Shown: positions 3,408-38,800 of the stretch, piece by piece
Position numbering within the stretch: position 1 is the stretch's first letter
Layout: each line of letters begins with the position of its first letter
Sequence record: MK931438.1
Origin: Escherichia phage Schulenburg
Length of the DNA stretch: 44,748 nucleotides
Reading direction: 5' to 3' (one strand)
Notes under the pieces: generated by a model
Told to the model about the DNA's origin: nothing
Databases searched by the model: none
The model's input: only the letters and a program-made list of their open reading frames with translations
Made by a program: the position numbers and the translations under genes

Positions 3408-4451
3408 ATGAGCTTACTTACATCTCTAATCAGCCACCAGATATGGCTGCAACGCACTGCATCCGGTGAGGTGAAAGACCTCGCGCCGTTCATTAAGGAG
3501 ATGCGGGACGAAATAAAACGGCAGGTGCTGTTATTCGGTGACGACGGGCGGAGCACTGCGCGACTGAATAAACTGTTACTCGACCTTGAAGAAGCGCTAA
3601 CCGGACTTACCGGCGATTGGCAAACAAAGCTGACAGAAGACCTTATGGAACTGGCGGCGTATGAGGCCGAGTGGAATGTAAAGACACTGACCACCAACGT
3701 AGATGCGGAATTTGTTACGCCTACTGCCGAACAGGTGTGGTCCGCTGCCGAGTTTCAACCCTTATCATTAAGCGACAAGCCTGTTGATTTCACTAAGCTG
3801 ATGTCGGGATGGGGTGAAACCGAAGTAGCACGTCTCGTAACCGGCGTTAAGATGGGCTTTGTTCAGGGTAAGACAACACGGCAGATTGTTAAGAATGTTG
3901 TTGGTGCTGGTGGTTTGGCGGACATTTCAGAACGTAACGCGGCTACTGTAATCCGCACCGCGCTGTCTCATGTATCCAACGAGGCCCGTAACGAGACGTA
4001 CCGCCAGAACGACGACATTATCGAGAAGTACGAGTGGGTGTCGACGCTGGACAGCCGTACCAGTACGATTTGTAGGGCCAGAGACGGAATGACGTGGGAA
4101 ATCGGTAAGGGGCCGATGCCCCCGGCCCATTTTGGGTGCCGAAGTACCACGGCACCTGTAATCAGTTCAGAGTTCGACTTCCTCGATAAAGGTGCAAAAC
4201 GTGCGGCTAAGGGCGCGGACGGAGGTACTCAGGTAAGCGCAGACACCACTTACTACGAGTTCCTGAAACAACAACCGGCGTGGTTCGTGGACGAAGCACT
4301 CGGGCCGACCCGCGGTGCGATATTCAGGAATAGTGGGATATCGCCAGAGGAATTCCGGGTAATATCTGTCGACGCTTTTGGTAGACCTTTAACCCTGAAG
4401 GAGATGGCGGAGTTAGACAACAGGGTTGCTGAATATCTTAGGTCGGTATAA
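3408..4451 (+). CDS. head morphogenesis protein (Mu gpF / SPP1 gp7-like)
   Basis: Follows portal; C-terminal motif AHFGCRSTTAP resembles the MuF-family H-x2-CRC signature; ATG 3408 (AGGG SD) preferred over ATG 3375, which lies in the terminator T-tract. Confidence 0.7.
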   Translation: MSLLTSLISHQIWLQRTASGEVKDLAPFIKEMRDEIKRQVLLFGDDGRSTARLNKLLLDLEEALTGLTGDWQTKLTEDLMELAAYEAEWNVKTLTTNVDAEFVTPTAEQVWSAAEFQPLSLSDKPVDFTKLMSGWGETEVARLVTGVKMGFVQGKTTRQIVKNVVGAGGLADISERNAATVIRTALSHVSNEARNETYRQNDDIIEKYEWVSTLDSRTSTICRARDGMTWEIGKGPMPPAHFGCRSTTAPVISSEFDFLDKGAKRAAKGADGGTQVSADTTYYEFLKQQPAWFVDEALGPTRGAIFRNSGISPEEFRVISVDAFGRPLTLKEMAELDNRVAEYLRSV

Positions 4452-4507
4452 AGTACACCTAGTAGCTAGCTTTGGTCGGTGAACTACTAAAAATAGAGAA
4501 AGAATAT

Positions 4508-4565
4508 AACCCCATGAAGGTATGCCTATCTCCGGCATCGACCAACCTTCATGGGGTTTTCTTAT
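4508..4565 (+). terminator. long hairpin plus T-tract (terminator-like)
   Basis: 12-14 bp stem ccccatgaaggt / accttcatgggg with ~23-nt loop, followed by TTTTCTTAT; the alternative ATG 4522 lies inside this hairpin. Confidence 0.45.
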
Positions 4566-4575
4566 AGGATTTAAT

Positions 4576-5145
4576 ATGGGAATTGTTTTTGGGGTAGGTA
4601 TTAATGATGTTTCACCAATAAGTTGCGGAGGGGTGCATATAGCGTCCTACGCCGGGTGGAAGAACATGTTAAAGAGGTGCTACGACAAGAAATGGCAGCA
4701 AAGAAACAGAACCTATACAGGTTGCCGTGTGTCTGACGATTGGTTGGTGTTCAGTAATTTCAAGGTCTGGTTTGATAATTTTTATGTACCTGGGTGGCAG
4801 ATAGATAAGGATTTACTGAACCCGGGAAATAAGGTTTACGATGCTTCTAACTGTGTTTTCATCCCCAAGTCCCTTAACACTTTCCTCACGGCCCACGACG
4901 CTCTTCGAGGCAAATACCCACTAGGTGTACATTTTCATAAACAAAAGAAAAGATTCATTGCCCAAGTATCCGTGGGTGGTGTATCTGAACAAATAGGCGC
5001 TTACGAAACCGCCCAAGAGGCACACGTAGCCTGGTTTCATAGAAAAATTGAATTAGCATATGAATACAAAGGCCTTTGCGATAGCATAGACCCACGCCTT
5101 TTCGAAGGCGTCTTACGTAAGATTAACTCAATGAAAGAGGTTTAG
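4576..5145 (+). CDS. HNH/AP2-type homing endonuclease-like protein
   Basis: N-terminal W-x2-M-x2-RC motif (GWKNMLKRC), degenerate His-Me-like region (IDKDLL..NCVFIP), C-terminal AP2-like segment (YETAQEAHVAW); AGGA SD 6 nt before ATG 4576. Confidence 0.55.
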   Translation: MGIVFGVGINDVSPISCGGVHIASYAGWKNMLKRCYDKKWQQRNRTYTGCRVSDDWLVFSNFKVWFDNFYVPGWQIDKDLLNPGNKVYDASNCVFIPKSLNTFLTAHDALRGKYPLGVHFHKQKKRFIAQVSVGGVSEQIGAYETAQEAHVAWFHRKIELAYEYKGLCDSIDPRLFEGVLRKINSMKEV

Positions 5146-5607: not shown

Positions 5608-5609
5608 TA

Positions 5610-5642
5610 AAAGGCCCCATAATGGGGCCTTAGTTTTATTTA
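5610..5642. terminator. bidirectional intrinsic terminator
   Basis: 8-bp stem aggcccca / tggggcct flanked by A-run upstream and TTTTATTT downstream; lies between convergent genes 5149-5607 (+) and 5636-6157 (-). Confidence 0.6.
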
Positions 5643-6157
5643 AATCGCGCAGGCATTAACACCATAAAGGCCGTGTTTGAAAATTGTATTTTGCATCCTC
5701 TGGTTTGGTCCTGGAAATCGAAACGAGCAATTTCATTTTTGTATGCCTTAGAAATCTTGTACGCGTCTGCCAAATAGCGCAGAGTGAACCCTATACTACC
5801 GACAACACCTGGTGTGATGTGCGCCACGCGTCTCCAGTCAGGAAAGTTTCCTTCTACAACATCTACCGGAAGTGTACATATAAGCGCACGATTATCGTCA
5901 TAGAAAGATACACTGCCGTTGTCGTGGTCTACCTCTGCGTAGTTAAATTTAGAAGGCTCTCTCCCTTTAATGTCGACGAGAACCCCTTTCTCAACGTTCG
6001 TCTTCACATTGTCGCAGAACAATCTATGACCGTCCGTAGACACTATCAATCCTTCAGGGTCTATGTAAAAAGCGTTCAAATAGTATCGAACATCATTTTT
6101 AGCCCTGCATATTTTCGCCCCTACATACGCAGGGAAAGTAATTACTGTAGTAACCAT
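5636..6157 (-). CDS. hypothetical protein (opposite-strand moron)
   Basis: 173-aa ORF on minus strand inside the head module; AGGAGG SD; own promoter motif upstream and convergent terminator; locally AT-rich. Confidence 0.6.
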   Translation of the reverse strand: MVTTVITFPAYVGAKICRAKNDVRYYLNAFYIDPEGLIVSTDGHRLFCDNVKTNVEKGVLVDIKGREPSKFNYAEVDHDNGSVSFYDDNRALICTLPVDVVEGNFPDWRRVAHITPGVVGSIGFTLRYLADAYKISKAYKNEIARFDFQDQTRGCKIQFSNTAFMVLMPARFK

Positions 6158-6184: not shown

Positions 6185-6213
6185 ATAGTACCCTATTATA
6201 TTGGTGCGCGCAA
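6185..6213 (-). promoter_or_regulatory. type-B promoter/operator (TTGCGC-N17-TACTAT over palindrome AATAGGGTACTATT)
   Basis: Minus-strand TTGCGC, 17-nt spacer, TACTAT; inverted repeat AATAG-N4-CTATT overlaps the -10; about 30 nt upstream of moron start 6157. Confidence 0.45.
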
Positions 6214-6279
6214 ACTATTTATTTACGTATTCCAGTTATTCCACTCAATTGTAAACGTTGGAATAAACTATTCGAATAG

Positions 6280-6308
6280 TTGACTTTTCACTGAAAATAT
6301 GATAAGCT
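6280..6308 (+). promoter_or_regulatory. sigma70-like promoter (TTGACT-17-TAAGCT) of conserved RNA element, copy 1
   Basis: TTGACT, 17-nt spacer, TAAGCT; near-identical promoter and downstream sequence recur at about 37877. Confidence 0.5.
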
Positions 6309-6515
6309 CCACCTGAGCTTGTGAAGTATGAACAAGCGACCGCGGCGCGGGCAGGTAACGGAGCGGGACGTAAGTCCTGAGTGTAGTTACGCTGACGCGT
6401 TCGGAAGGGCCATAGTCTATTGCTTGTGTAAAAAGTAACTGGTTTACTGAGATTACGCCGTTTCTATGTTTAAATGATAAGGACTAGCGCCCCGCTTTAA
6501 GGCGGGGCTTTACTT
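6309..6515 (+). ncRNA. candidate promoter-proximal structured RNA / leader element (copy 1)
   Basis: About 40 nt (cctgagcttgtgaagtatgaacaagcgaccgcggcgcg) identical to copy 2, then about 130 nt diverged but alignable; hairpins gcttgt-N9-acaagc and ggac-GTAA-gtcc; ends with stem gccccgc/gcggggc plus TTTACTT just before the Rz SD. Confidence 0.3.
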
Positions 6516-6532
6516 ATCGAGAAAGGGGAAAC

Positions 6533-6919
6533 ATGAATCTTAAAGCAACTGTCGTAGCAGGAGCATGTTTCATCCTCCTGACATACGGCTACGGAATCTA
6601 CCAGTATCGCAGCGGCTGGGACGAAGGCCGGGCGAATCTCGTTTCGCAGCAACAGCAGAAAGCACAGGCTGAGTTAGCGAAGAAAACACAACGGCAGCAG
6701 CAGGATGAATCAAAGGCCGCCGCCGCTGACAACGAAGGCAAGACGAAATCAGAGGTGCTTACCCGTGAAGTCGTTAAGTACATTAAAACGCCTGGCCGCA
6801 GCGTGTGCACTTTCGACGATGCTCGCGTCCTGCTCAAGTCCCACGCCGTTGCCAACGCCAATTCCATCCCCGGATACGACGATGATGCAGCCGCCGTGCA
6901 AACTGGCACCGCCAAGTAG
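6533..6919 (+). CDS. i-spanin (Rz-like)
   Basis: N-terminal TM helix, then Q/A/K/E-rich coiled-coil region; 128 aa; contains an overlapping +1-frame lipoprotein ORF. Confidence 0.6.
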   Translation: MNLKATVVAGACFILLTYGYGIYQYRSGWDEGRANLVSQQQQKAQAELAKKTQRQQQDESKAAAADNEGKTKSEVLTREVVKYIKTPGRSVCTFDDARVLLKSHAVANANSIPGYDDDAAAVQTGTAK

Positions 6920-7028
6920 CGACGCTGACGAGGATTTAGCTATCGACGTTCAGAACGCCGAATGTGTACGGCAACTGAGACTGAAAGTGTTCATGTTGCA
7001 GGATTACGTGAGGAATATTCTGGAATAG
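6765..7028 (+). CDS. o-spanin (Rz1-like outer-membrane lipoprotein)
   Basis: +1-frame ORF overlapping the 3' half of Rz and extending past it; proposed GTG start with AGAGG SD; signal peptide KSLSTLKRLAAACALSTMLASC with lipobox LASC; Pro-rich mature region. Confidence 0.5.
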   Translation: MKSLSTLKRLAAACALSTMLASCSSPTPLPTPIPSPDTTMMQPPCKLAPPSSDADEDLAIDVQNAECVRQLRLKVFMLQDYVRNILE

Positions 7029-7110
7029 TTGCCTTGTATGTTGGAATAATTTATTCTTGACATGTAAATCCGGGAGGCCCGGATTCCAACGTCCAGGGGA
7101 CATACTGACT

Positions 7111-13273: not shown

Positions 13274-13310
13274 AAGGAAAAGGCCCCTTTCGGGGCCTTT
13301 TCCTTATTCC
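13274..13310. terminator. strong bidirectional intrinsic terminator
   Basis: Perfect 14-bp stem aaggaaaaggcccc / ggggccttttcctt with TTTC loop, A-rich 5' side and T-rich 3' side; between convergent genes. Confidence 0.7.
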
Positions 13311-23380: not shown

Positions 23381-25753
23381 ATGTCAAGCGGATGCGGTGA
23401 CGTTTTAAGCCTGGCGGATTTACAAACCGCCAAGAAGCACCAGATTTTCGAAGCCGAGGTTATTACCGGTAAATCCGGCGGCGTAACCGGTGGTGCGGAT
23501 ATCGATTATGCGACCAACGCGGTTACTGGTCAGATGCAGAAGACTCTCCCTGCCGTGTTGCGAGATGCGGGGTTCTTCCCGGCATCTTTTGATTTCACTA
23601 CCGGCGGGACATTATCGGCTACAGACCGCAATAAGGTCGTTTATGACCCAGTAAGCATGGCCTGGTATTCATGGGGCGGTTCTTTACCAAAGGTTGTCCC
23701 CGCGGAAACTAACCCGTTACTGGACACAAATTGGAAACCGCAAACAGACCCGAATCTACGCAATGACCTTGAAAATGGCATGTACAGAACGGACGCAACC
23801 GCCGTTAAATATGTTCCTGGGGTGGTTATAAACAGCACAACAGATAACCGGGCCGCATTGTATGCATTCCCTGGCAAAGTTTATATCCCAAAAGACGTCC
23901 AGCTACGCTGTAATTTCCTGCCAGATGATGATGTAACAAAATTTACTGGTGAAGGAAAAATTCTCACGCGCGACCCATGGGGTAACGAGCACATTTTCGA
24001 CGTTTCACTGGCAACTCATGGGAGCAAATACACTGCATTCAACGTAATAAACCAGTTCGCTCGCCGCAATACGCTATGTCGTGTTGGTATCATTGGTGAC
24101 TCAATCACAGACGGCGCATACGGAACCGACTGGGTAGCCAACCCAACTGATTCAAACGGGGACCTTTCTTCGACTAATTACGACCACAATGGCAATGGTG
24201 GCGCAGGTTCCTGGTTCCGTACCTTCACGGACTGGCTTAACCAATTTACAAAAAATGGTGCTTTCATCTTTAAAGCAGAAAACTGCGCATCTTCTGGAAA
24301 GCGACTTATTGACGGGTGGGCTAATCGTAATTTCGACCATGGCTTTTTCAAAAACACTGCATACGGGAATGTTCCACCGGATGTCTGCTTTATGTCTATG
24401 GGCGTTAACGATAACGGCCAACTGGATACGTTAGGGTTCGATCAGTACTTATTCCGTTTTGAGCAGTTTATCCGTAAAGCATGGGGCTATGGATGTGCTG
24501 TCTGCGTTGTTTCAATGAACCAGAATGGCTCACAATGGGCGGCTCTCGAGGCATCAATCAAGAAGCATATTGAACGCCTGTTCCCCGCGGTAGAGTTCCT
24601 CGATCTCTCTCAGGCAGTAACTGAGATGTACAGAGATGTCGGTAGCTACACCTTAGAAGAAATTTGCCGTCGTCCTACCAATGGCTCTTTCGACTACACG
24701 CACTTTGCGCCCCTTGGTCACCAATATATTGGCGCTTATGCCGCGACCAAGGTTATGCCTTATCGCGTCCATAAGGCCGCAAAAGGGAATAATTTCCTGC
24801 CTGTGTCGCCTAACGATATCCAACCATTCGGGTACCCTTCCGGCAGTACATATGACGTTTCTATGGAGCGACTTAGCGGAAATTCATACCTGAATGGGCT
24901 TACCGGATGGGGCGTGGTTAAACCCGCTACTGAAAATTTAACCATACGATATTTTGTCTGGTGTGATACTTCTGACATATCAATGGTTATTTTTGAGCCA
25001 TATAACCCTACTTACATTGGTTCCGGGCGCGCAAATACTGTATCAATACGCCAACAAGATACCCGTAATACAGCATATATCTCCGGTAATATCGCGAGTA
25101 ATGGCGTCTCATCGTTTACGAACAAACTCACCACACGAACTGGGATCCTTAGAAAAGGACTGAATAAGATTGAGATTGTTTACGATGGTACGCCGTCGAA
25201 AGTATACCCTCCCGCTCTGTTATTCAGAGGAGAGCTGAACGAATCATGTTCTCAGAACACCTCTGTATACTTGGCTGCAAATGCGATAAAGGGTGTTTAC
25301 GGTCAATTAAGGGATAAAGCTGATTTGTTATTGTCATATGCGGCTGAAACCGCAAATGATGAAGCGCCGGATATGTACGGCGCTACTAAGTCATCAAATG
25401 TTCAAAATGTTGTCCTGTCAGCTTTGCCCGTTGATTGTGGTGTTGTTTTTTACTACAAACCCACGTCACAAAGTGGAGTTGTCGCCAAGCGAGTGGCGAC
25501 TGGCATCGAGATCTCGACGATGCTTTTTGGCGCACTTACTGTTATCGGCACCTTGACTTGCGATGTGACCGGCGAAGTCATGCTCACAGCCGGCCTGGCA
25601 CCTTCAGTACCTACAATAACAGTTAAACCCACTACCGGCGGCACTGTTCAACAAACTGTTACTGGTCACTCTGGCGGCAAGATAGCCCTGATTAACAAGG
25701 GGGCTTCCGGTAACACAATAACGGTTAAATCTTCATCTCAATTCGTCATTTAA
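23381..25753 (+). CDS. tailspike / receptor-binding protein with SGNH (GDSL) esterase domain
   Basis: SGNH blocks in order: GDSITDG (block I), GVNDNG (block III), DYTHFAPLGH (block V D-x2-H); 790 aa; last gene of tail module; AAAGAGGA SD. Confidence 0.7.
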   Translation: MSSGCGDVLSLADLQTAKKHQIFEAEVITGKSGGVTGGADIDYATNAVTGQMQKTLPAVLRDAGFFPASFDFTTGGTLSATDRNKVVYDPVSMAWYSWGGSLPKVVPAETNPLLDTNWKPQTDPNLRNDLENGMYRTDATAVKYVPGVVINSTTDNRAALYAFPGKVYIPKDVQLRCNFLPDDDVTKFTGEGKILTRDPWGNEHIFDVSLATHGSKYTAFNVINQFARRNTLCRVGIIGDSITDGAYGTDWVANPTDSNGDLSSTNYDHNGNGGAGSWFRTFTDWLNQFTKNGAFIFKAENCASSGKRLIDGWANRNFDHGFFKNTAYGNVPPDVCFMSMGVNDNGQLDTLGFDQYLFRFEQFIRKAWGYGCAVCVVSMNQNGSQWAALEASIKKHIERLFPAVEFLDLSQAVTEMYRDVGSYTLEEICRRPTNGSFDYTHFAPLGHQYIGAYAATKVMPYRVHKAAKGNNFLPVSPNDIQPFGYPSGSTYDVSMERLSGNSYLNGLTGWGVVKPATENLTIRYFVWCDTSDISMVIFEPYNPTYIGSGRANTVSIRQQDTRNTAYISGNIASNGVSSFTNKLTTRTGILRKGLNKIEIVYDGTPSKVYPPALLFRGELNESCSQNTSVYLAANAIKGVYGQLRDKADLLLSYAAETANDEAPDMYGATKSSNVQNVVLSALPVDCGVVFYYKPTSQSGVVAKRVATGIEISTMLFGALTVIGTLTCDVTGEVMLTAGLAPSVPTITVKPTTGGTVQQTVTGHSGGKIALINKGASGNTITVKSSSQFVI

Positions 25754-25757
25754 ATAC

Positions 25758-25790
25758 AAAAGGCCCCGAAAGGGGCCTTTTCTCTACTTT
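25758..25790. terminator. bidirectional intrinsic terminator at structural/replication module boundary
   Basis: aaaaggcccc-gaaa-ggggcctttt hairpin with flanking A and T runs. Confidence 0.65.
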
Positions 25791-25917
25791 TCTAATAACT
25801 TCTCCAGTACAAACGCCAGTTGCGCATTGGCGGCGTCTCTCTGCTGCCGTAGTCGTAGAACCTCCTCTTCGAGTCCCTTGATACGTTTTTGCAATGCTGG
25901 AATCGGGGCTGTGATGT

Positions 25918-26409
25918 TCACGCGGTTTCTCCGTGGTTTTCATGAAATCCGTAAGCAGCTTCCGCAGCTTTACGCGCGGCGACAGCTTCGTCAAAATTAT
26001 CAAACCTTCCAATAGTTTTTGTCTTTCTAAATTTGGTTATTTGTACCAACCACTTGCACCGCTCTTTGTCAAATGACACCCCTACCGCCCCAGACCTATT
26101 ACGCCCGGTAGCCAGCCTGTTCATAGCGTTTTCCTGCTTAGTAACTACCCTTAAATTTGCGAGCCTGTTATCTGCGCGATTATGGTTCTGATGGTCTATT
26201 TCCATGCCGTCTGGTATAGGCCCATTGAACATTTCCCATATGACCCGGTGTGCGCGGTAGATAACCCCGTTGTAGCGAAACTGAATGTAGCCGAACTTGT
26301 TTAGTGTTCCGGCTACAGCACCTTTAGCAACATTTTTAGCAGGTTTTATAACCCATATTAGATTTCCGGTCTCCGGTTCATACCGTAGTACATTCTTCCA
26401 GATAAACAT
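25918..26409 (-). CDS. HNH endonuclease with AP2 domain
   Basis: HNH motif EIDHQNHNRADNRLANLRVVTKQEN; C-terminal AP2-like GVSFDKERCKWLVQI...GRFDNFDEAVAARKAAEAAYG. Confidence 0.8.
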   Translation of the reverse strand: MFIWKNVLRYEPETGNLIWVIKPAKNVAKGAVAGTLNKFGYIQFRYNGVIYRAHRVIWEMFNGPIPDGMEIDHQNHNRADNRLANLRVVTKQENAMNRLATGRNRSGAVGVSFDKERCKWLVQITKFRKTKTIGRFDNFDEAVAARKAAEAAYGFHENHGETA

Positions 26410-27830
26410 TATCGTTTCCTTCTCTTCATATAATTAAGTAGTTCGTCCTGTACAGACCTTTTCTCGTCTGTACGCGCGGCGACAACTTCATCAAGAGTAT
26501 CTCGGGCTATTATTTTATAAATGAATACAGACCGTTTGTATCCGGATTGCATCTGCCTTACTGGGCCTATACGCTCGATAACCTGCAGATAATGTTCCAG
26601 GTTCCACCCCTGACTCATAAAAGCCATGTGATGCCCGCCGTGTTGTAGCGACAGCCCGTGGCCCGCGGAGGCTGGGTGTATCAGGAGCATAGGTATCTCG
26701 CCACGGTTCCACGCTTCCATCTGCTTATTACCCTTGGCCCCTTTGGCAAACGCCTGGGCTTGTGGGAATCTCTTAAGGATGCGCTCCAGTTCATGCTTGA
26801 ACTGATAGGCCACCAGTAACGGCGCACCATGCAACTCTTCAACAATGGACTCCAGCGCGTCCAGCTTCGTGTCATGCACTTTCTCCCAGTCTTTCGTTGC
26901 TTCGCCATCTGGCCCTGATACATACACGGCACCGGACGCAATCTGCAAACACTTAGATGTCTTCGCAGCCGCGTTAGCCGCTTCAACTTCTCCGCTCTCC
27001 AGTTCCGCGAATAGCTTCTCCTCCATATCTATGTACGCCTGACGCGCTTTCTTCGGCAGGTCAATTTCCACCGGCACGATAATCGGCGCTTCACAACCGA
27101 ACCACTCGGCGGCGTCAATCGTCAGGCTAATGTCTTTCATCTTCTGGTGAATTTCATTATCCGCACCAGGGCGTGCATGATACTCACGCGCCATAGCCGA
27201 TTTGCCTTTCTGTACCGAGTTAAACCATCGGTCGGTGAATGCCGTGTATGAAGAACCGAGGCGCTCGCCCGCGTCGATAAACCAGTTCTGACCCCACAAG
27301 TCTTTGAGGCCGTTCGGTGACGGCGTTCCCGTCAGGTTTATAAAACGCTTGACCCTACCGAACGCAACCTTGCTAAGCGCCTTTGCCCGCTTGCTGCCAC
27401 CTGAACGACTGCGGAATGATTTCAGTTTCGTGCTCTCATCGGCAACGATAACCGTAAAAGGCCAGTCGTCTTTGCCGTAATAGTCAATAAGCCACTCGAT
27501 AACTTCGTAGTTTGTACAGACCACATTAGCGTCTGACTCCAGTGCCGCGATGCGGCGCTTCTCTGAACCTGTCGCATCTACGACGCGCAGACACGGGAAT
27601 CGCCATTTCTCTTGTTCTGATGGCCATGTGCCGGACGCAACACGCAGCGGGGCGAGGATTAACACGCGGTCGTCGTCCGTAAGCTGCCCGTTGCGGAACA
27701 GTCGGTTAAGCACCCACATCGTTGCGGAACTTTTGCCGGCGCCCATCGAAGCCCAAATATTACAGCGAGGATGCTGTAGCATGAACGAAGTCATGAGCTT
27801 CTGGTACTCGCGCCTTTGAAACTTACTCAT
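26409..27830 (-). CDS. SNF2/DEAD-like helicase
   Basis: Walker A ASMGAGKSS; DExx box VIVADESTKLK; 473 aa. Confidence 0.75.
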   Translation of the reverse strand: MSKFQRREYQKLMTSFMLQHPRCNIWASMGAGKSSATMWVLNRLFRNGQLTDDDRVLILAPLRVASGTWPSEQEKWRFPCLRVVDATGSEKRRIAALESDANVVCTNYEVIEWLIDYYGKDDWPFTVIVADESTKLKSFRSRSGGSKRAKALSKVAFGRVKRFINLTGTPSPNGLKDLWGQNWFIDAGERLGSSYTAFTDRWFNSVQKGKSAMAREYHARPGADNEIHQKMKDISLTIDAAEWFGCEAPIIVPVEIDLPKKARQAYIDMEEKLFAELESGEVEAANAAAKTSKCLQIASGAVYVSGPDGEATKDWEKVHDTKLDALESIVEELHGAPLLVAYQFKHELERILKRFPQAQAFAKGAKGNKQMEAWNRGEIPMLLIHPASAGHGLSLQHGGHHMAFMSQGWNLEHYLQVIERIGPVRQMQSGYKRSVFIYKIIARDTLDEVVAARTDEKRSVQDELLNYMKRRKR

Positions 27831-28018
27831 TTTGCCACCAGCACCAGCTCTTTACGCCCGAACGCCGTAACGTTACCTGTTACGTCTTCAATAACCAGTT
27901 TACCGTTCGACTCGACGAACACCGTATCAACGGCAACAGGTTGACGGGTCTTAACATTGAAAATCATGTCGCCAGGTACGATGTCACGTGCGGGTTTGCG
28001 GTCATATTCGTGTTTCAT
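27827..28018 (-). CDS. hypothetical protein (63 aa)
   Basis: AAGGAA SD; first gene after the 28052-28080 promoter; overlaps helicase start. Confidence 0.5.
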   Translation of the reverse strand: MKHEYDRKPARDIVPGDMIFNVKTRQPVAVDTVFVESNGKLVIEDVTGNVTAFGRKELVLVAK

Positions 28019-28048
28019 TTCTCAATTCCTTATATTGTTGGTGTAGGA

Positions 28049-28348
28049 CTAACTATAATAGTTTGCTATTATGTCGTCAACCTCTTCTTTTGTTCCTACT
28101 ACAAAAACATTTGCGTCACGTTTACGAAGCCGTTTGTGCTCCCGTAACTGATGTTCCTCCGGTTCCGTGTTTTCATCCTTCTTCACCTCTACAAACCATA
28201 TAACCCCTCCCGGAAGGACAACCAACAGGTCAGGCGCTCCGTTTCTACCCTCATACACTATCTTACGAACGAGGCCGCCAAGGGCCTCGAATTGCTCTTT
28301 TGCGTATTTCTGAATCTTGCCTTCCGGAGTCATGAGCGCAAAACCCAT
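28049..28348 (-). CDS. VRR-NUC domain nuclease
   Basis: PD-(D/E)xK-type motif PDLLVV...WFVEVKKDE; 99 aa. Confidence 0.6.
   Translation of the reverse strand: MGFALMTPEGKIQKYAKEQFEALGGLVRKIVYEGRNGAPDLLVVLPGGVIWFVEVKKDENTEPEEHQLREHKRLRKRDANVFVVGTKEEVDDIIANYYS
28052..28080 (-). promoter_or_regulatory. type-A promoter with operator in spacer (TTGACG-17-TATAGT; ATAATAG-N4-CTATTAT)
   Basis: Minus-strand -35/-10 with 17-nt spacer containing a perfect 7-bp inverted repeat; overlaps the 3' end of the VRR-NUC gene. Confidence 0.55.
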
Positions 28349-28476
28349 GCAAGGAAAGCCCCACCAACAACGGCAGCACCAACAAACTTAAAGAACAGGT
28401 CATAATAGAACATCGAAGCTATTCCCGCACTGAGTAACAGTGCGAGCATGGTTACTATCGTCCAAAATACAAACAT
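28330..28476 (-). CDS. small hydrophobic protein (48 aa, putative)
   Basis: Not in ORF track; ATG-initiated, stop overlaps VRR-NUC start; one of several overlapping small-ORF candidates in 28350-28690. Confidence 0.3.
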   Translation of the reverse strand: MFVFWTIVTMLALLLSAGIASMFYYDLFFKFVGAAVVGGAFLAWVLRS

Positions 28477-28685
28477 TGTCATAATACACACCCCTCACGT
28501 TTCGTATGCTCAATTCCGCAGCGCGGACAGATTCGACAATCTTCTTCATATAACCGGTATATTTTCATTCCGGCACCCACAGATAAATTGCGATTAACAT
28601 ACCCAATACGGCAACCATCATGCCGTACTGTCCCTCGTGACAGTAACCACCGGCGGCGAATCCAGCCAGTACCGCGATAATCAGT

Positions 28686-30857
28686 TTACTTAGCATAGCG
28701 CTTCATCTCCGCACCTTCTGCAACCAAAGGGAATCCCTCCGCCCAGTCAGGCAATTCACACATCAACCTCTCAAGCTCTGCAACATTGTATTCAGGCGAA
28801 TCTGGCGTCTCGCAGATAATCTCATCGTGTACATGAAGCACAATCGGGTAGCCGTTTGCTTCAACTTTAAGTAGCGCGTTAGCCAGCAAATCACGGCACA
28901 ACGCCTGCGTACAGTTTTCCACCAGTTTGCCTGAGTACGTGTACTGGAATCCCCACTGACGCGTTAACTGGTTCTCCCCCTGGTACTTGATGCGCACGTT
29001 AGTAGAAACTTTTCCGTCTTCGTCTGTCTCTTTCGACACGCTTAAACCGACGCCAGGGTAGGACATAACACGTCCCGACGGCAACGTCATGCGCAACCAC
29101 CAACCCGCTACCTTGTTGCCGTTGTTGTCTGTTTCTACGTTGCGGGAAAACTTAACTCCGCGCGGGCCAGCGGAGAACTCTTTCCCCGGATTACGTATAG
29201 CTGCCATAGCTGCGTCTTCAATATCGCGCCAGAATTGTACTATCGCCGGGTTGGCTTCCCGGTACATTCGTTTCAGAGCGTCACATGTACGCCAGACTTT
29301 CTTATCAAGGATATATGATGGTCGGTCATCCTTTTCACCCGGACGCGGAGGACGTTTAGCTTCCTGAATACGTGCCCACTCGTAACCACGTGCCGTAGCG
29401 GCCCATATATGGTCAGGGAAAGTTCCAGCTAAAATGTTAGTCATGTCGTTCAAATCAAGCCCTAAGTTTTTAGCAAACGTGACGAAAGCGCCCACACCCC
29501 CCGCGTAGCCCAGTCCGAGAACCATTGCTTTGGCTATTTGTCTTTGGTCTTTTGTTACGTCGTCATAACTAACATTGAACACGGTTGATGCGAGTTTCTT
29601 GTACACATCAACTCCGTTTACAAATACTTCTATTAAATCGTCTTCACCCGCCAGCCAGGCCAGCCCACGACCTTCAACGTTAGAGTAATCGGCAACAACA
29701 AACTTGTGTCCGGCTTCCGGGATGATGCAGCTACGCACCGTCGATGCCGTCAGCTTGGCGACATCAAAGCGGCGATGTGCACGTCCTTTCAGTAGCGCAG
29801 AAATACCTTTATCCAGTTCATCGTCATGATAGTACCCGCGGGCCAGGTTCTGTGGCTGGAAGCCTTTGCCAGCGAATCGTAGCGTACGCTTAGCCCCGCC
29901 GTACTGGATACAACCACGGCGGCGGTCGTCTGACGAGCGGCCTAGCAACAGCGGGTTATATTTCGTTGACGCAGTTGACGCGGCCCCGAGGCGCATTTCG
30001 ATAATCATGCGTGCATCGTCGGGTAAATCCTCGTCAGCCAGCAGGTCGTTAAGAGTAGACTTCTGTGCGTTATGGATGCGATGCGCAGGGGCCAGTTCAC
30101 GCAGAATCGGCAGGAAGTCTTTACCGGTAAGCGAGCCGCCGTATTTGCGCTGGGCTTCTTCCTGCAACTGCGCCTTGTGCTTCTCTACGGCTTCAATCGC
30201 TGCTTCCGCCAGCGCAACATCAACCTTGAACCCACGGTCATTGATTAACTGGTCCAGTTCCAGTACACGGTCTTCGAACTCAGAGTTACCCCACCGCGGC
30301 AGCTTATGGAAGACTTCACGCATCGCGGTGATGTCGCTCACGGCGTACTTGATGAACAGCGCCCACTCGTCCAGGTGCGTTTCGGCGGTGTAGCGGCGGA
30401 TTTTGTAGTTCTTCGGCGTAGGTTTAGAGAAACGCTGAATCAGCGCCTTGCCGCGTTTATCTTTCGCGTTGTCTGCCGATACACCCAGCACTTCGCACAA
30501 CGCATCAAGTGAACCCGGCAGCGCGTGGCGAAACGCCCAAATCATCGTATCAATGGTGTTGCTTACAGGAATATCAAAACCCCAGCAGTGTTTCATGATG
30601 AGCCTGTCGAACATTGAGCCGTTGTGCCACACCATCTTGATACGGCTGTTCGGCTTAACCAGGCGGCGTAAGGCGCGGTGCAAATCCCCCGGCATGTCGC
30701 TGCCGTCGGTGCAATCCCATACCTGCACAGGCTCGTCATCAAAAGCATAGGTACAGATTAGCACTTCGGTAGTTGGATGTTCGGCGTAAGCGTAAGAACC
30801 GACTTTCTTTAAATCGGCCTCGGAGAATGTTTCAAAGTCCAGGTATAAGTAGCTCAT
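28686..30857 (-). CDS. DNA polymerase, family A, with 3'-5' exonuclease domain
   Basis: Exo I motif YLDFETFS; Pol I motif A VVADYSNVEGR, motif B RQIAKAMVLGLGYAGG, motif C HVHDEIICE; ATG at 30857 (AAGGAAAAAG SD) preferred over TTG 30911. Confidence 0.85.
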   Translation of the reverse strand: MSYLYLDFETFSEADLKKVGSYAYAEHPTTEVLICTYAFDDEPVQVWDCTDGSDMPGDLHRALRRLVKPNSRIKMVWHNGSMFDRLIMKHCWGFDIPVSNTIDTMIWAFRHALPGSLDALCEVLGVSADNAKDKRGKALIQRFSKPTPKNYKIRRYTAETHLDEWALFIKYAVSDITAMREVFHKLPRWGNSEFEDRVLELDQLINDRGFKVDVALAEAAIEAVEKHKAQLQEEAQRKYGGSLTGKDFLPILRELAPAHRIHNAQKSTLNDLLADEDLPDDARMIIEMRLGAASTASTKYNPLLLGRSSDDRRRGCIQYGGAKRTLRFAGKGFQPQNLARGYYHDDELDKGISALLKGRAHRRFDVAKLTASTVRSCIIPEAGHKFVVADYSNVEGRGLAWLAGEDDLIEVFVNGVDVYKKLASTVFNVSYDDVTKDQRQIAKAMVLGLGYAGGVGAFVTFAKNLGLDLNDMTNILAGTFPDHIWAATARGYEWARIQEAKRPPRPGEKDDRPSYILDKKVWRTCDALKRMYREANPAIVQFWRDIEDAAMAAIRNPGKEFSAGPRGVKFSRNVETDNNGNKVAGWWLRMTLPSGRVMSYPGVGLSVSKETDEDGKVSTNVRIKYQGENQLTRQWGFQYTYSGKLVENCTQALCRDLLANALLKVEANGYPIVLHVHDEIICETPDSPEYNVAELERLMCELPDWAEGFPLVAEGAEMKRYAK

Positions 30858-31009
30858 TTCTTTTTCCTTAAATCCAGTGCCTTCGTTTCGCTTAATCTTA
30901 TTTTCATACAATCACAGCAAATCCACACATGCTTGTACCCGGCCCGGTACTCATCTGCATACCACGGAAGCGGTTTCATATAGCGATAAACGTGCTTACA
31001 GAAAAACAT
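30854..31009 (-). CDS. small Cys-rich protein (51 aa, putative zinc-binding)
   Basis: Not in ORF track; MFFCKH...WICCDCMK; stop overlaps polymerase ATG (ATGA), suggesting translational coupling. Confidence 0.35.
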   Translation of the reverse strand: MFFCKHVYRYMKPLPWYADEYRAGYKHVWICCDCMKIRLSETKALDLRKKK

Positions 31010-31021
31010 TATTTTCGACCC

Positions 31022-31049
31022 TTAGTAAAAAGGCCCAATGAAGGGCCTT
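31022..31049 (-). terminator. intrinsic terminator-like hairpin (minus strand)
   Basis: aaggccc / gggcctt stem followed on minus strand by TTTTT; downstream of the DUF2815-like gene. Confidence 0.45.
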
Positions 31050-31068
31050 AGTTAAATTGATTCAGATA

Positions 31069-31695
31069 TTAGCGGCGACGACGTTCGCGGCGCGGTGCTT
31101 CATCTTCTTCGTCGTCTTCCAGGTCAGTAACACTTGCAGAGACTTTAGAACCGCCAAACGCTTTACCTTCGCCGGCGTATTTAATCGCCAGCAGGTTAAC
31201 GCCGAGGACTTTATATTTCTGGCTGAACCAGATTTCAACGCTTACGTTAGCGACGCAGCCGCTGTAAACCTGTTCACCTTCAATCTGTTCGCCTTCGACG
31301 TTGAAGTCAGGCTCTACCTGAGTTTCACCTTTTTTAGAGGTTACAATCAGAGGTTGTTTCTGTGCCTTCGCTTTGAAGTAGAAGCCTTCCGGGAAGTCTT
31401 CAAAAGGATTATCACGCTCGGCGATGTCCTTAATAGCACATTTATCCATGTGCTTGCCTTCGCCGTAGTTTGACTTCATCCACTTCTCGGCAGCAGCGGC
31501 CCCCAGTGCTTCCTCTACAACCGCATAAACAGTGTCGTACATTTCGTCGATTTGCGCATGGTCAGACGGCAGAATGATAGTCGCGCTGTACTGACCTTTA
31601 GTGATAGAGCCATCGTCGTTTTCACGGTCTTTTTCGCGTTCGAATACGTTAACCCATGCAGTGTTTACTTTACGCAGATTTAATTTCAGTCCCAT
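31069..31695 (-). CDS. ssDNA-binding-like protein (DUF2815-like)
   Basis: 208 aa with acidic Asp/Glu-rich then Arg-rich C-terminal tail; adjacent to DUF2800-like nuclease and polymerase. Confidence 0.5.
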   Translation of the reverse strand: MGLKLNLRKVNTAWVNVFEREKDRENDDGSITKGQYSATIILPSDHAQIDEMYDTVYAVVEEALGAAAAEKWMKSNYGEGKHMDKCAIKDIAERDNPFEDFPEGFYFKAKAQKQPLIVTSKKGETQVEPDFNVEGEQIEGEQVYSGCVANVSVEIWFSQKYKVLGVNLLAIKYAGEGKAFGGSKVSASVTDLEDDEEDEAPRRERRRR

Positions 31696-31753
31696 TTGAT
31701 TTCTCGCTTTTAAGTTTCGTTTACTCCGGGAAGCTGCCCGGCCAGTGATTAGA

Positions 31754-31782
31754 ACTATAATAGCTAACTATTCAGGTGTCAA
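31754..31782 (-). promoter_or_regulatory. type-A promoter with operator in spacer (TTGACA-17-TATAGT; AATAG-N4-CTATT)
   Basis: Perfect -35, 17-nt spacer containing inverted repeat gAATAGTTAGCTATTat; immediately after the DUF2800-like stop. Confidence 0.55.
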
Positions 31783-31786
31783 CACT

Positions 31787-33031
31787 TTATTCTAAATCTT
31801 CTTCACTAACCTGATTCCACTCAGGCCGTTTGTCGTCTGCCGTTGCTACACATGGTGCACCTGGCTTACGTGTGATGAAGTCTTTCAGTTCTTCTTCCGG
31901 TATAACTTTAACCGCTTCGGTCGGCGTCATGAGAACGACTTTGTTCAGCATAGTGCCGTATTTCTCAGCCACCTTATCAGCGTCTTTCCACGCACGATTA
32001 CCCGGACGACCCTCGACCAGCTTGTAACCCGGCACTTTCTTGCCAGAATGCAACGCGGCAGCCATAGCTTTCTCAACCTTGTCGATGTGCTGGCGCAACA
32101 ACGGCAGCTTCTCATACTCGGCGACGAGTTGCTCGGGTGTCAGTTCCAGCGCAAAGTCGTCCTCCAGTTCTTCCACCAGTACAGAATTAACAGTCTTCGT
32201 CCTGGCGACGCACTGTTCCGAGAACCGGCACCACTGGCAACCATCGACTGACGGCTTAAAGTCGGACGCTTTCAGGTTCTTCTTACCACGGAAGTACGCA
32301 TCGAGTGCTAACAGCGCGCGTTTATGTGCGAACTTAGTGAACAGTTCCAGGCCTTCAACCGAGATATCCCACTCCGACGCACCGCCAGCATACGGCTGGA
32401 AGATGACCAGACGAACAGTTGTTATGTTATATCGTCTCTTTAGTCGGCGATAAACACCGAGAGCGTAAAGCATAAGCTGCTTGTTTTCTTTCGCTTCGAC
32501 ACGATGCCGTCCGGTTTTCAGGTCACCAATAATGAGCATGTGCTCGTCGGTGTTCGCCAGTTCCTGCACGGCAACAAGGTCAGCGGTCCCGAACGTCTCA
32601 ACGCCTTCATATCCCGGATGCAGCACCTCTGTAAGATTGACGCGCATTTCCAGCTTGGCGTAAGTCGCTACGTCGATAATCGGTTTGCAGTAGTCGGTGT
32701 ACTTACGCACCTGCTCAATCATGTCCGCCGTAATAAGTACCGCACCTTTCATAAGGCTGATTAACGCCTTAATCTGGCCTTTGCCTTCATCCAGCACGTA
32801 AGCCCCGACTTCACGCTCTAACGGCAACGCAGTGCCTTTGATGTACTGGTTAAGGTGAATCTCAGCTATGGTGTGCATGGCTGTGCCCAATACGGCGGCT
32901 TTACCTGACGTATTTGGAATGTCTTTTTCACATGCCAGTGATGCACTGCACGTCAGCCACTTCTTAGCGCCTGACGGCGACAACAGGGCGTGCACATCGT
33001 TATTGCCGCCGCGTTCTTTTAGTTTCATCAT
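31787..33031 (-). CDS. PD-(D/E)XK Cas4-like nuclease (DUF2800-like)
   Basis: N-terminal HALLSPSGAKKWLTC, nuclease motif TADLVAV...IIGDLKTG, C-terminal Cys cluster CQWCRFSEQC. Confidence 0.7.
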   Translation of the reverse strand: MMKLKERGGNNDVHALLSPSGAKKWLTCSASLACEKDIPNTSGKAAVLGTAMHTIAEIHLNQYIKGTALPLEREVGAYVLDEGKGQIKALISLMKGAVLITADMIEQVRKYTDYCKPIIDVATYAKLEMRVNLTEVLHPGYEGVETFGTADLVAVQELANTDEHMLIIGDLKTGRHRVEAKENKQLMLYALGVYRRLKRRYNITTVRLVIFQPYAGGASEWDISVEGLELFTKFAHKRALLALDAYFRGKKNLKASDFKPSVDGCQWCRFSEQCVARTKTVNSVLVEELEDDFALELTPEQLVAEYEKLPLLRQHIDKVEKAMAAALHSGKKVPGYKLVEGRPGNRAWKDADKVAEKYGTMLNKVVLMTPTEAVKVIPEEELKDFITRKPGAPCVATADDKRPEWNQVSEEDLE

Positions 33032-33285
33032 TTGGACTCCACCGGTAACTCAGGTAAATACATCCAGTGTGTTATACCCATCTCTATATACCGTTTCGTG
33101 TATAACTGTTTTCCGTTTTCATCCAGACCGGCGGTGATATCGTCGAAGTAATCCTGGATGTGAACAAAATCAATTCCACCTTCAGGGAAGCCGTTGTCAT
33201 CATATTTACTTCCGTCTACGGAGCAAACCAAAACAGCATCATCTTTTGATTCCGGTAACGCATCATTTACGCTAACCCAATTCAT
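33028..33285 (-). CDS. hypothetical protein (85 aa)
   Basis: ORF with overlapping start/stop coupling in the leftward operon. Confidence 0.5.
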   Translation of the reverse strand: MNWVSVNDALPESKDDAVLVCSVDGSKYDDNGFPEGGIDFVHIQDYFDDITAGLDENGKQLYTKRYIEMGITHWMYLPELPVESK

Positions 33286-33554
33286 ACCCTAACCTCCCAC
33301 TGGTCGATTAAATGTCGTGTCTTATGGTCGCAGTGCATAGCCCATCCATACATCGACTCGAAGACATAAAAGTCACTTTTAACAAAAGTCGTGCGCTTAA
33401 TCTGCGACATGTGACGGCCTATATCTTTAGGCCGTGGTACTTTGCCTAAGTACGCCATCTCTTCCATCTGGTGTGCGCCGGACGGAGCGCGCAACAGCCA
33501 TAGCGCCTCTGCGTTATCCCGCCGGTCAACGGCGCGGTAGAGTTGGTAAATCAT
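33282..33554 (-). CDS. hypothetical protein (90 aa)
   Basis: ORF in leftward operon. Confidence 0.5.
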   Translation of the reverse strand: MIYQLYRAVDRRDNAEALWLLRAPSGAHQMEEMAYLGKVPRPKDIGRHMSQIKRTTFVKSDFYVFESMYGWAMHCDHKTRHLIDQWEVRV

Positions 33555-33597
33555 AATTACGACCCTCAGTTAAAGCGGCCCGAAGGCCGCGAGATAG

Positions 33598-34095
33598 TTA
33601 TTCTTCTTCGAAATACTTGTTCTTGATTGCCGTCAGGCGTTCCAGGTATTCGGCCAGGTCTTCGTCTTTAATCGCGGCAATCTTCATCTTCTTGCCGGTG
33701 AACTCTTCTAGCAGTTCATCCGAATCATCGCACGCGGCATCGCTCGGGCCTTCGTTAATTGCATCGTCGATAGCCTGAATCTGGTCGCGCAGAGACTGGT
33801 AATCGACTTCTTCCTTCTCTTCCGTCTCTGGCGTCGATTCCTCTACTTTAGCTTTACGCGGCTTACGTTTCGGCTTCTCTTCTTCCGCCGGTTTAGTGTC
33901 AACCAGGTCTTCACCTTCGACCGGGATTTCTTTTGTTTCTTCTTTAATACTTTCAGAGAACTGCTCAATTTTATGCGCGGCTACTGCGGCGGCCTCTTTG
34001 GCAGTAGTTGGCGCGAACTGTTTTGCACTGTTCGCAGCAATCAGTTCATGGGCAACTACGAAACGCTCCAGTAATTTCAGAAATTGTTCTAACAT
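33598..34095 (-). CDS. highly acidic protein (165 aa)
   Basis: Glu/Asp-rich, low-complexity central region; AGGAGAG SD; early position in leftward operon. Confidence 0.55.
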   Translation of the reverse strand: MLEQFLKLLERFVVAHELIAANSAKQFAPTTAKEAAAVAAHKIEQFSESIKEETKEIPVEGEDLVDTKPAEEEKPKRKPRKAKVEESTPETEEKEEVDYQSLRDQIQAIDDAINEGPSDAACDDSDELLEEFTGKKMKIAAIKDEDLAEYLERLTAIKNKYFEEE

Positions 34096-34110
34096 TTGTT
34101 TCTCTCCTGT

Positions 34111-34260
34111 TTATTTATACTTAACGGTTTTGACTAACTGGCCTGTTGCTTTGTCGAAGAAGCCAACACGATTGTTGCTTACGCTATATCGTGCGGTTTC
34201 TTTAGTTACAAATGCGATATCAAGGCCTAACAGAATCTTTGCTTTGCGGTTGTTAACCAT
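34111..34260 (-). CDS. small basic protein (49 aa, putative)
   Basis: Not in ORF track; AGGAGAG SD then ATG; first ORF after the 34291-34319 promoter. Confidence 0.35.
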   Translation of the reverse strand: MVNNRKAKILLGLDIAFVTKETARYSVSNNRVGFFDKATGQLVKTVKYK

Positions 34261-34290
34261 TGTGTCTCTCCTCTCGTTTGGTATGGGCTA

Positions 34291-34319
34291 ACTATAATAG
34301 CGAACTATTCACTTGTCAA
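34291..34319 (-). promoter_or_regulatory. type-A promoter with operator in spacer (TTGACA-17-TATAGT; AATAG-N4-CTATT)
   Basis: Minus-strand promoter divergent from the HTH regulator gene; inverted repeat gAATAGTTCGCTATTat in spacer. Confidence 0.55.
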
Positions 34320-34322
34320 TGG

Positions 34323-34352
34323 GCTTTTCTAAAATAATTAATATGGTACTAT
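34323..34352 (+). promoter_or_regulatory. candidate promoter of HTH regulator with half-palindrome AATATGGTACTATT
   Basis: TACTAT -10-like hexamer with weak -35; operator-like motif related to the type-B sites. Confidence 0.35.
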
Positions 34353-34383
34353 TCACGCATCAACTAACTAAGGAGTAACTGAC

Positions 34384-34599
34384 ATGCAACCATCTGAACT
34401 AGGCATCCGTGTAGAACAACGCCGTAAAGAACTCGGCATCTCCCAGCGCCGTCTGGCTGTCCTGACTGGCGTTTCCCAGGGCGCGATTAACCAACTGGCA
34501 CTTGGGGTAACTCAGGACGTCCGCCCGGCGACGCTGTTTAAACTGGCGGAAGTGCTGGAGGTAGACGCCAAGTGGCTGGCGTTAGGTGAAGGGGCTTAA
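34384..34599 (+). CDS. HTH XRE-family transcriptional regulator (Cro/CI-like)
   Basis: 71 aa; HTH region ELGISQRRLAVLTGVSQGAINQLALG; AAGGAG SD; divergent from operator-containing promoters. Confidence 0.7.
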   Translation: MQPSELGIRVEQRRKELGISQRRLAVLTGVSQGAINQLALGVTQDVRPATLFKLAEVLEVDAKWLALGEGA

Positions 34600-34616
34600 T
34601 GCCCCTTTCTTTTTAT
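34589..34616 (+). terminator. intrinsic terminator after HTH regulator gene
   Basis: aaggggc-ttaat-gcccctt hairpin followed by TCTTTTTAT. Confidence 0.55.
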
Positions 34617-34630
34617 AGCAACTTATCGAG

Positions 34631-37185: not shown

Positions 37186-37202
37186 TTCTTTTTCTCCGCA
37201 CG

Positions 37203-38797: not shown

Positions 38798-38800
38798 GTT

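Follow-up and report, generated by a model that had tools for sequence, protein, structure and literature searches.

Two-component spanins have been curated from phage genomes by Kongari et al. 2018 in SpaninDB, where the overlapped class includes a 'Jersey' family (PMC6139136). The 27 members of this family include K1G, K1H, K1ind1-3, SETP3, and SO-1; the overlap reported for Jersey is 155 bp, and the o-spanin has cysteines at positions 45 and 67 that are constant (PMC6139136). P2 lysB/lysC, whose o-spanin gene continues beyond the i-spanin stop, serves as the prototype for overlapped spanins (PMC6139136). T4 has its spanin genes, pseT.3/pseT.2, away from both the holin gene (t) and the endolysin gene (e) (PMC6139136).

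The gene pair at 6533-7028 of the window (the whole 44,748-bp stretch analyzed) is very probably the two-component spanin of this Kagunavirus and a member of the 'Jersey' overlapped family. By every sequence criterion of that family the pair belongs to it. The overlap of 155 nt, Cys45, Cys67, and the 87-aa product agree exactly, and both subunits are homologous (93% identity to K1G and 62.6% to SETP3; phrog_2536 and phrog_5672/1267). The counterparts are K1G ORF5/ORF6, Snoke CPT_Snoke_008/009, and SETP3 gp07/gp08, which share the 155-nt +1 overlap, the 87-aa o-spanin with its two cysteines, the i-spanin cysteine, and a site in the genome flanked by head decoration and scaffold genes. There is no difference of substance: the window i-spanin differs from that of Snoke by a 2-residue indel in the transmembrane domain (TMD), and the lipobox is LASC in the window and LSAC in K1G. 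The spanin pair is thus already known: its family is catalogued, and the position it occupies is the usual one and has been annotated before.

Other described spanin systems resemble this locus in part. Lambda Rz/Rz1 has the same functional class and predicted topology (a type-II inner-membrane protein paired with a small, Pro-rich lipoprotein of the outer membrane that is encoded in the +1 frame) and the same presumed fusion of inner and outer membranes once murein is removed. However, it has no sequence similarity to the window pair detectable with Pfam, and Rz1 is wholly embedded in Rz, whereas the window o-spanin gene overlaps its partner only in part and ends 109 nt past the i-spanin stop. 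Rz/Rz1 also ends the S-R-Rz lysis cassette under pR'/Q, while the window pair is in the head module with its own predicted promoter. P2 lysB/lysC shares the overlapped architecture but is unrelated in sequence and sits inside its lysis cassette. T4 is alike in that its spanins are unlinked to the holin and endolysin, and also in its o-spanin, which in T4 has two essential periplasmic cysteines and a structured C-terminus. In contrast, the T4 spanin genes are separated rather than overlapped and of an unrelated family, and all three T4 lysis functions are scattered, whereas in the window the holins and endolysin are together and only the spanins are apart.

Gene structure and family assignment

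The locus contains the following coding features:

6533-6919, + strand: i-spanin gene, 128 aa, full-length match to phrog_2536 'Rz-like spanin' (E=1.5e-54)
6752-6757, + strand: Shine-Dalgarno sequence GAGGTG of the o-spanin, inside the i-spanin gene, 7-nt spacer to GTG 6765
6765-7028, + strand: o-spanin gene, 87 aa, +1 frame, matches to phrog_5672 (E=4.7e-30) and phrog_1267 (E=2.3e-18), both 'Rz-like spanin'

The i-spanin has a predicted N-terminal TMD at residues ~5-23, its sole hydrophobic stretch (Kyte-Doolittle 19-mer maximum 1.54), and the Snoke record likewise annotates a single TMD, N-in, from TMHMM. A Gln/Ala/Lys-rich predicted helix follows, then a conserved C-terminal block (ITREVVKY..PGRxVCxFD). 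The periplasmic Cys92 is invariant in all nine relatives compared. A single-sequence AlphaFold2 model places helices at residues 3-84 and 94-105 with low confidence (pLDDT 63, pTM 0.29); usable as a helix indication only, it supports helicity of the periplasmic domain and nothing beyond that. In tblastn searches the i-spanin is 93% identical to the K1G 'putative spanin' and 62.6% identical to the SETP3 protein; it is present in 519 phage records, near full length in 504 of them.

The open stretch of the +1 frame, 6678-7028, offers three candidate starts, ATG 6705, GTG 6765, and ATG 6819. The first was rejected, as it has no Shine-Dalgarno sequence and adds 20 hydrophilic residues to give a 43-aa hydrophilic N-terminus; the last leaves only 4 residues before the lipidated-type cysteine. 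GTG 6765 is preceded by the Shine-Dalgarno sequence listed above, and the Center for Phage Technology annotation of Snoke gives an identical GTG start and ribosome-binding site. Translation from this codon yields a predicted signal peptide, VKSLSTLKRLAAACALSTMLAS, with a basic n-region (K/K/R), an uncharged h-region, and the lipobox LASC in a rule-based scan. The signal peptide is followed directly by the cysteine (VKSLSTLKRLAAACALSTMLAS then CSSPTPLPTPIPSP...), leaving CSS at the mature N-terminus. This cysteine is Cys23 (codon 6831-6833), and the +2 residue is Ser, compatible with outer-membrane sorting. The mature protein would be 65 aa long (Cys23-Glu87) with a Pro-rich linker, and contains Cys45 (PPC) and Cys67 (NAEC), each invariant in 9/9 relatives. 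In SETP3, the o-spanin lipobox is LNGC, atypical at position -2.

The whole genome was also scanned in six frames for a start codon followed by n-region, h-region, and lipobox. Two ORFs match, the o-spanin and one dubious TTG ORF, compared with a mean of 0.3 in 30 shuffled genomes. Apart from the o-spanin, the genome has no credible lipoprotein ORF.

Judged by the Summer 2007 and Kongari 2018 criteria for the two-component spanin class, the i-spanin combines a single predicted N-terminal TMD with a largely helical periplasmic domain, and the o-spanin has an SPII signal, a lipobox, a non-Asp +2 residue, and a small mature protein (all rule-based). The genes form an out-of-frame overlapping pair (+1, 155 nt; +1 in 9/9 relatives), and the proteins have at least one periplasmic cysteine (Cys92, Cys45, and Cys67 are all invariant in the nine relatives). 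Around the locus, DNA identity is 97% to Kagunavirus genomes that have an i-spanin and an o-spanin annotated at exactly the same site.

Outside of PHROG, database searches with both proteins gave only sub-threshold noise in Pfam (FTZ, DUF4148) and no match in NCBIfam or among PDB sequences; the Pfam families of lambda Rz and Rz1 do not include the pair. The assignment of function therefore relies on signals, architecture, and family curation, and the pair is a predicted functional analog of lambda Rz/Rz1 with no demonstrable homology to it. This qualifies a sequence-only reading of the window, which had called the pair Rz/Rz1: the i-spanin and o-spanin identities hold, based on PHROG matches and signals, but a relationship in sequence to lambda Rz/Rz1 does not (Pfam, NCBIfam). 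The same reading had described an i-spanin-like protein with a transmembrane segment and a coiled coil, and a Pro-rich +1-frame lipoprotein with lipobox LASC, starting at GTG and extending about 110 nt past the Rz stop. The TMD and the phrog_2536 match agree with the former, whose periplasmic part is supported as helical rather than specifically as a coiled coil, and the signal peptide, Cys23, Ser +2, and GTG 6765 with its ribosome-binding site and Snoke counterpart agree with the latter; the extension measures 109 nt.

A different role for the two proteins is conceivable. An inner-membrane protein and a lipoprotein could act in superinfection exclusion or receptor masking, in the manner of T5 Llp or Cor-like proteins, or in head assembly, with the outer membrane breached in some other way. 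In line with this, the pair is in the head module and not in the lysis cassette, no curated Pfam or NCBIfam spanin model matched, and we found no experimental test of any Jersey-family spanin in the literature. We nevertheless consider such a role very unlikely, given that the pair has all of the hallmarks of a two-component spanin (a type-II TMD protein, a Pro-rich outer-membrane lipoprotein, the +1 overlap, and cysteines in both), that no other spanin or lipoprotein was found in the genome scan, and that the curated SpaninDB family assignment agrees with a spanin. Moreover, exclusion lipoproteins are usually early, single genes.

The spanin assignment also requires the +1 ORF to be a gene. 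Overlapping ORFs arise by chance in GC-rich frames, and several database records annotate only one 'putative spanin' here, so that the i-spanin-like gene alone might be real and the second frame open by accident in and past it. Conservation argues strongly against this. The lipoprotein frame is kept in 9/9 relatives whose i-spanin identities are 36-97%, always at +1 and always with the signal peptide, the lipobox, the PPC cysteine, and a D-x-DL..DV.N.EC..LR motif that contains the second cysteine. Among the 33 C-terminal codons read in the o-spanin frame only, dN/dS is 0.005-0.33 where dS is unsaturated, and judged by these ratios the o-spanin-only region is under purifying selection. A Shine-Dalgarno sequence at the right spacing and the PHROG o-spanin family match (E=4.7e-30) point the same way, and the absent annotation reflects a known gene-caller bias (PMC6139136). 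An accidental frame is effectively refuted, leaving it next to no probability. For annotation pipelines, this locus is a reminder that an overlapped o-spanin is still missed in many records.

Position relative to the holins and endolysin

The holin and endolysin genes are near the right end of the window:

41128-41436, + strand: first holin, phrog_2359 holin (E=6.9e-30)
41429-41710, + strand: second holin, phrog_2508 holin (E=6e-30), match from residue 32 of the long ORF; likely start ATG 41429, longest ORF from TTG 41336
41688-42191, + strand: lysozyme-type endolysin, phrog_7 endolysin (E=1.9e-37)

The window is a complete, circularly representable Kagunavirus (Guernseyvirinae) genome, opened just 5' of the small terminase gene. 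As for the DISPLACEMENT, the spanin pair lies 34.1 kb away from the holin along the linear record. However, the two ends of the window (its last 73 nt and its first 4.4 kb) run together in phage Ivi, whose record has a different start point, and circular records have been deposited for K1G, BPS11T2, and SO-1. Drawn as a circle, the genome therefore has 9,090 nt (9.1 kb) between the endolysin stop and the i-spanin start, which lies downstream of it on the same strand; the corresponding gap in Ivi can be read directly and is 7.8 kb. Genes for the terminase subunits (terS, terL), the portal, head morphogenesis, an Ig-like decoration protein, and, on the reverse strand, a beta-clamp-like protein occupy the interval, along with ~10 small ORFs and an additional ORF of 207 aa.

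The sequence-only reading had placed the pair in the head module, directly downstream of the first copy of an RNA element (6307-6416), and displaced about 35 kb from a holin-endolysin cassette (41128-42191) with no neighboring spanin. The head-module site and the separation from the cassette are borne out, the latter by the three PHROG matches (phrog_2359, phrog_2508, and phrog_7) and by 42191-42541 downstream of the endolysin, in which there is no lipoprotein or TMD ORF. The figure of 35 kb is an artifact of this linearized record, since Ivi contiguity reduces it to 9.1 kb. Nor is the separation peculiar to this genome; it is the conserved, annotated layout of Guernseyvirinae and Dhillonvirus. 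The comparison with related genomes that had been proposed finds the same pair at the same site in Kagunavirus, Jerseyvirus, Tsm2, TS33, and SO-1.

Over 6200-7100, the window is 95-97% identical to ~50 Kagunavirus coliphages, including fPoEco01, fFiEco02, Ivi, Snoke, Golestan, and RP180, and 299 phage records match in total. An i-spanin and o-spanin are annotated at this site in Snoke, Ivi, K1G, Golestan, SETP3, and BPS11T2; the K1G record describes ORF6 as 'putative spanin ... overlapping gene'. The recurring order is head morphogenesis/decoration, spanins, scaffold, and major capsid protein, with holin-holin-endolysin upstream of terS. It is found in Kagunavirus (K1G, Snoke, Ivi, Golestan) and Jerseyvirus (SETP3, BPS11T2), and also in Serratia phage Tsm2 and Hafnia phage TS33 (unclassified Guernseyvirinae) and Sodalis phage SO-1 (Dhillonvirus). 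In this phage lineage, the spanins are the first genes of the predicted scaffold/major-capsid transcription unit. Because the layout recurs across the clade and the i-spanin in 519 phage records, comparison of these genomes indicates that the split arrangement is ancestral to a large clade, and it is already in public annotation. In the Kagunavirus and Jerseyvirus literature we found gene lists only and no explicit discussion of the displaced spanin position.

A recent rearrangement, moron-like insertion, or assembly artifact specific to this genome, for which one could cite the pair's own predicted promoter, the partly repeated GGAATAA..TATTC..TTGAC motif that flanks it, and the neighboring reverse-strand clamp-like gene found in only some relatives, is hardly credible against a position common to Kagunavirus, Jerseyvirus, unclassified Guernseyvirinae, and Dhillonvirus and a near-full-length i-spanin in 504/519 phage records; any insertion would be ancient.

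Proposed lysis mechanism

By analogy with the lambda Rz/Rz1 model, the i-spanin would insert its N-terminal TMD into the inner membrane and extend its helical domain into the periplasm. The o-spanin, starting at GTG 6765, would be exported, lipidated at Cys23 via Lgt/LspA/Lnt, and sorted to the outer membrane, as the Ser at +2 allows. The C-terminal regions of the two proteins may then bind across the periplasm, through the murein meshwork, and disulfides involving Cys92, Cys45, and Cys67 probably stabilize the spanin complex. In the peptidoglycan-caging model for Rz-Rz1 as summarized in PMC6139136, such complexes would build up harmlessly, caged by peptidoglycan. Once the holins (41128-41710) have triggered and the murein has been stripped by the endolysin (41688-42191), the spanins would be free to fuse the inner membrane with the outer one, and the cell would burst.

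With lysis timed by the holin alone, the spanin genes can lie outside the lysis cassette, and expression with the late structural genes would be enough. The split layout illustrates a known principle, namely that spanin activity is gated by murein removal, so that linkage to the holin and endolysin is not needed. A lysis cassette without an adjacent spanin consequently need not mean a spanin-less phage.

Predicted promoter, hairpin, and structured leader RNA

The region upstream of the pair, and a second site in the rightward operon of the holin and endolysin genes, contain the following features:

6280-6308, + strand: predicted sigma70-type promoter of the spanin unit; -35 TTGACT at 6280-6285, 17-nt spacer, extended -10 TG-n-TAAGCT at 6300-6308
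6307-6416, + strand: leader RNA copy 1, ~110 nt, at the 5' end of the predicted spanin transcript (131.7 bits with covariance model R1)
6489-6508, + strand: terminator-like GC-rich hairpin from a terminator scan, GCCCCGC-UUUAAG-GCGGGGC followed by UUUACUUAU
37588-37842: divergent HTH regulator gene adjoining leader copy 2 (Pfam HTH_17/HTH_3)
37905-38015, + strand: leader RNA copy 2, 5'-terminal in the rightward holin/endolysin operon (95.7 bits with covariance model R1)

The spanins are predicted to be driven by their own sigma70-type promoter at 6280-6308. Its sequence shares 87% identity with a second predicted promoter, at 37878, and SETP3 and BPS11T2 have a corresponding arrangement (TAGACT-17-TGnTACGCT). 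The hairpin, downstream of leader copy 1, ends 24 nt upstream of the i-spanin start, and its stem covaries in the Jerseyvirus phages SETP3 and BPS11T2.

The leader RNA has the architecture of a three-way junction, composed of P0, a P1 hairpin, and a long, irregular P2 hairpin, and its two copies align with compensatory differences. Thirty-five distinct variants from IMG/VR and GenBank loci fold into the same junction. Four IMG/VR pattern matches (L012, L013, L035, L039), out of 39 matches listed in all, were set aside as chance-like; they lack the P1 hairpin and are unrecognized by the covariance model. The structure was specified by hand and with a covariance model, replacing RNAalifold on a MAFFT alignment that contained leaders from the distant Tsm2 and TS33 and was out of structural register. 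Among 14 Kagunavirus variants, 91% of cells are paired, compared to 31-43% in controls with slid partners, and double-change cells number 29 versus 11 +/- 2.3 in shuffles. With the Jerseyvirus copies added, 15/33 pairs have a compensatory change, in an alignment fitted with the covariance model and thus leaning towards that model.

Searches with the covariance model recover two copies, no more, from the window and a single copy from each Jerseyvirus locus, where it precedes the spanins; SETP3 has one detectable, spanin-proximal copy. The model has no hit in Tsm2, TS33, SO-1, or the HK022 regions fetched. Rfam gives no match for the whole window at gathering thresholds, and at E<=10 on 6250-6540 only chance-level ones, such as wcaG at 18 bits versus a gathering score of 42. 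We also considered a 36-aa ORF (6328-6438, 'hypothetical' in Snoke) as a leader peptide and rejected it: a 1-nt indel between the copies breaks the frame while base pairing is kept, which argues for an RNA rather than a peptide.

Of the described systems, HK022 putL/putR is the nearest in form, as a multi-helix RNA of ~70-110 nt at or near the 5' end of sigma70-promoter transcripts; like put, the leader has two copies per Kagunavirus genome, heading long operons with terminator-like hairpins. The differences are that put consists of two stem-loops and the Guernseyvirinae leader of a three-way junction, that SETP3 has one detectable copy, and that covariance model R1 has no match in the HK022 record 24000-40751, including the immunity region, although a distant relationship is possible given that the model was built from Guernseyvirinae. 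The leader thus appears to resemble put rather than to belong with it, as it has no sequence or structure similarity to put-type RNA by this model. These observations fit put-like antitermination, but also a 5' stabilizer or a terminated small RNA of ~200 nt. Tentatively, and with considerable doubt, we suggest that the leader at 6307-6416 may be a new cis-acting regulatory RNA, possibly a put-like processive antiterminator that would allow read-through of the hairpin at 6489-6508 and of later terminators in the scaffold/capsid/tail operon. If the leader is a shared control RNA, both halves of the split lysis system would be under one RNA element in Kagunavirus. Within this locus, the leader alone may merit separate attention, for the control of late and lysis transcription in virulent Guernseyvirinae.

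Palindromes occur on both sides of the spanin pair. One, CTATTCGAATAG, abuts the -35 element of the promoter at 6280-6308. The other lies between the o-spanin stop and the scaffold gene, just upstream of a TTGACA at 7054-7059:

7043-7056, + strand: palindrome GGAATAATTTATTC

This palindrome is a partial repeat of the motif at 6260-6273 and may be an operator or promoter element. In the whole genome, TGGAATAA occurs only at 6236 (- strand), 6259, and 7042.

Leader RNA and hairpin upstream of the spanins

Two near-identical predicted sigma70-type promoters would each drive a transcript with a copy of the leader RNA at its 5' end, an element of about 110 nt that folds into a three-way junction with strong covariation.

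6307-6416, plus strand: leader RNA copy 1, heading the spanin transcript
37905-38015, plus strand: leader RNA copy 2, heading the holin/endolysin operon
6489-6508, plus strand: terminator-like hairpin with an 8-bp GC stem and a UUUACUUAU tail, between leader RNA and i-spanin RBS

Kagunavirus genomes carry the leader RNA twice, and Jerseyvirus has one copy upstream of the spanins. Rfam contains no family for the element, and a covariance model returned no match to it in HK022 (record coordinates 24000-40751), the phage of the put antiterminator RNAs. A put-like antiterminator, a 5' stabiliser and a small RNA are candidate roles. The stem of the hairpin at 6489-6508 covaries in the Jerseyvirus phages SETP3 and BPS11T2, where the tail is not U-rich. 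The early-rightward operon of SETP3 has an untranslated leader of about 400 nt (37484-37910 in SETP3) that lacks the Kagunavirus-type RNA element; a short motif, AAGTAACTGAAATGCCG, is common to this leader and to the regions 3' of both leader RNA copies in the window.

The annotation of phage Snoke places a hypothetical protein within the leader RNA (CPT_Snoke_007, a 36-aa ORF, at 6328-6438 on the plus strand of the window). This ORF is unlikely to be a gene, because a 1-nt indel between the element copies destroys the frame yet preserves base-pairing.

Motifs flanking the spanin pair

The genome has just three occurrences of the sequence TGGAATAA, all of them flanking the spanin pair (regions 6236-6279 and 7042-7059). 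At both 6260 and 7043, a GGAATAAnnTATTC palindrome lies directly upstream of TTGAC. Imperfect relatives of the flanking motif are found at 9787, 11258, and 41430, and allowing up to two mismatches yields 13 matches against 3.1 expected. The motif is likewise present in SETP3 and in TS33, an unclassified member of the Guernseyvirinae. It probably serves as an operator for a phage regulator or as part of a late promoter. The palindrome of the spanin promoter, CTATTCGAATAG, is built of the same inverted AATAG..CTATT half-sites that are present in two repeat families, and those of D1 sit within strong predicted promoters (TTGACA-17-TATAGT type) of the leftward replication genes.

28051-28094, 31753-31796, 34290-34333, promoters on the minus strand: D1 repeats
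38192-38222, 39117-39147: D5 repeats
5608-5640, 13278-13302, 25757-25789, 31026-31058: repeat families D4 and D6, whose near-palindromic hairpins (AAAAGGCCCC-loop-GGGGCCTTTT) lie at operon boundaries

The D4 and D6 hairpins are probably bidirectional intrinsic terminators.

Possible accessory genes in the head module

5636-6157, minus strand: 173-aa gene embedded in the head module and adjoining the spanins
4522-5145, plus strand: 207-aa ORF encoded by an insertion of about 0.7 kb

Annotations of the 173-aa gene conflict: its PHROG label is 'RusA-like Holliday junction resolvase' (phrog_3007, 2e-36), it is annotated as beta-clamp-like in Snoke, Ivi, and SO-1, and its only Pfam match is a weak one to DNA_pol3_beta_2. 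The gene is absent from K1G, SETP3, and BPS11T2, and its counterpart in SO-1, a Dhillonvirus, lies on the opposite side of the spanins; judged from this genome comparison, its patchy presence and switched side make it moron-like in behaviour.

Relative to Ivi, the window carries the insertion at 4438-5132, between a head-morphogenesis gene and an Ig-like decoration gene. Its 207-aa ORF, which has no match in Pfam, may be a mobile gene of the homing-endonuclease-like kind. In Snoke, the adjacent capsid morphogenesis gene contains an intein, and the insertion spot therefore seems prone to selfish elements.
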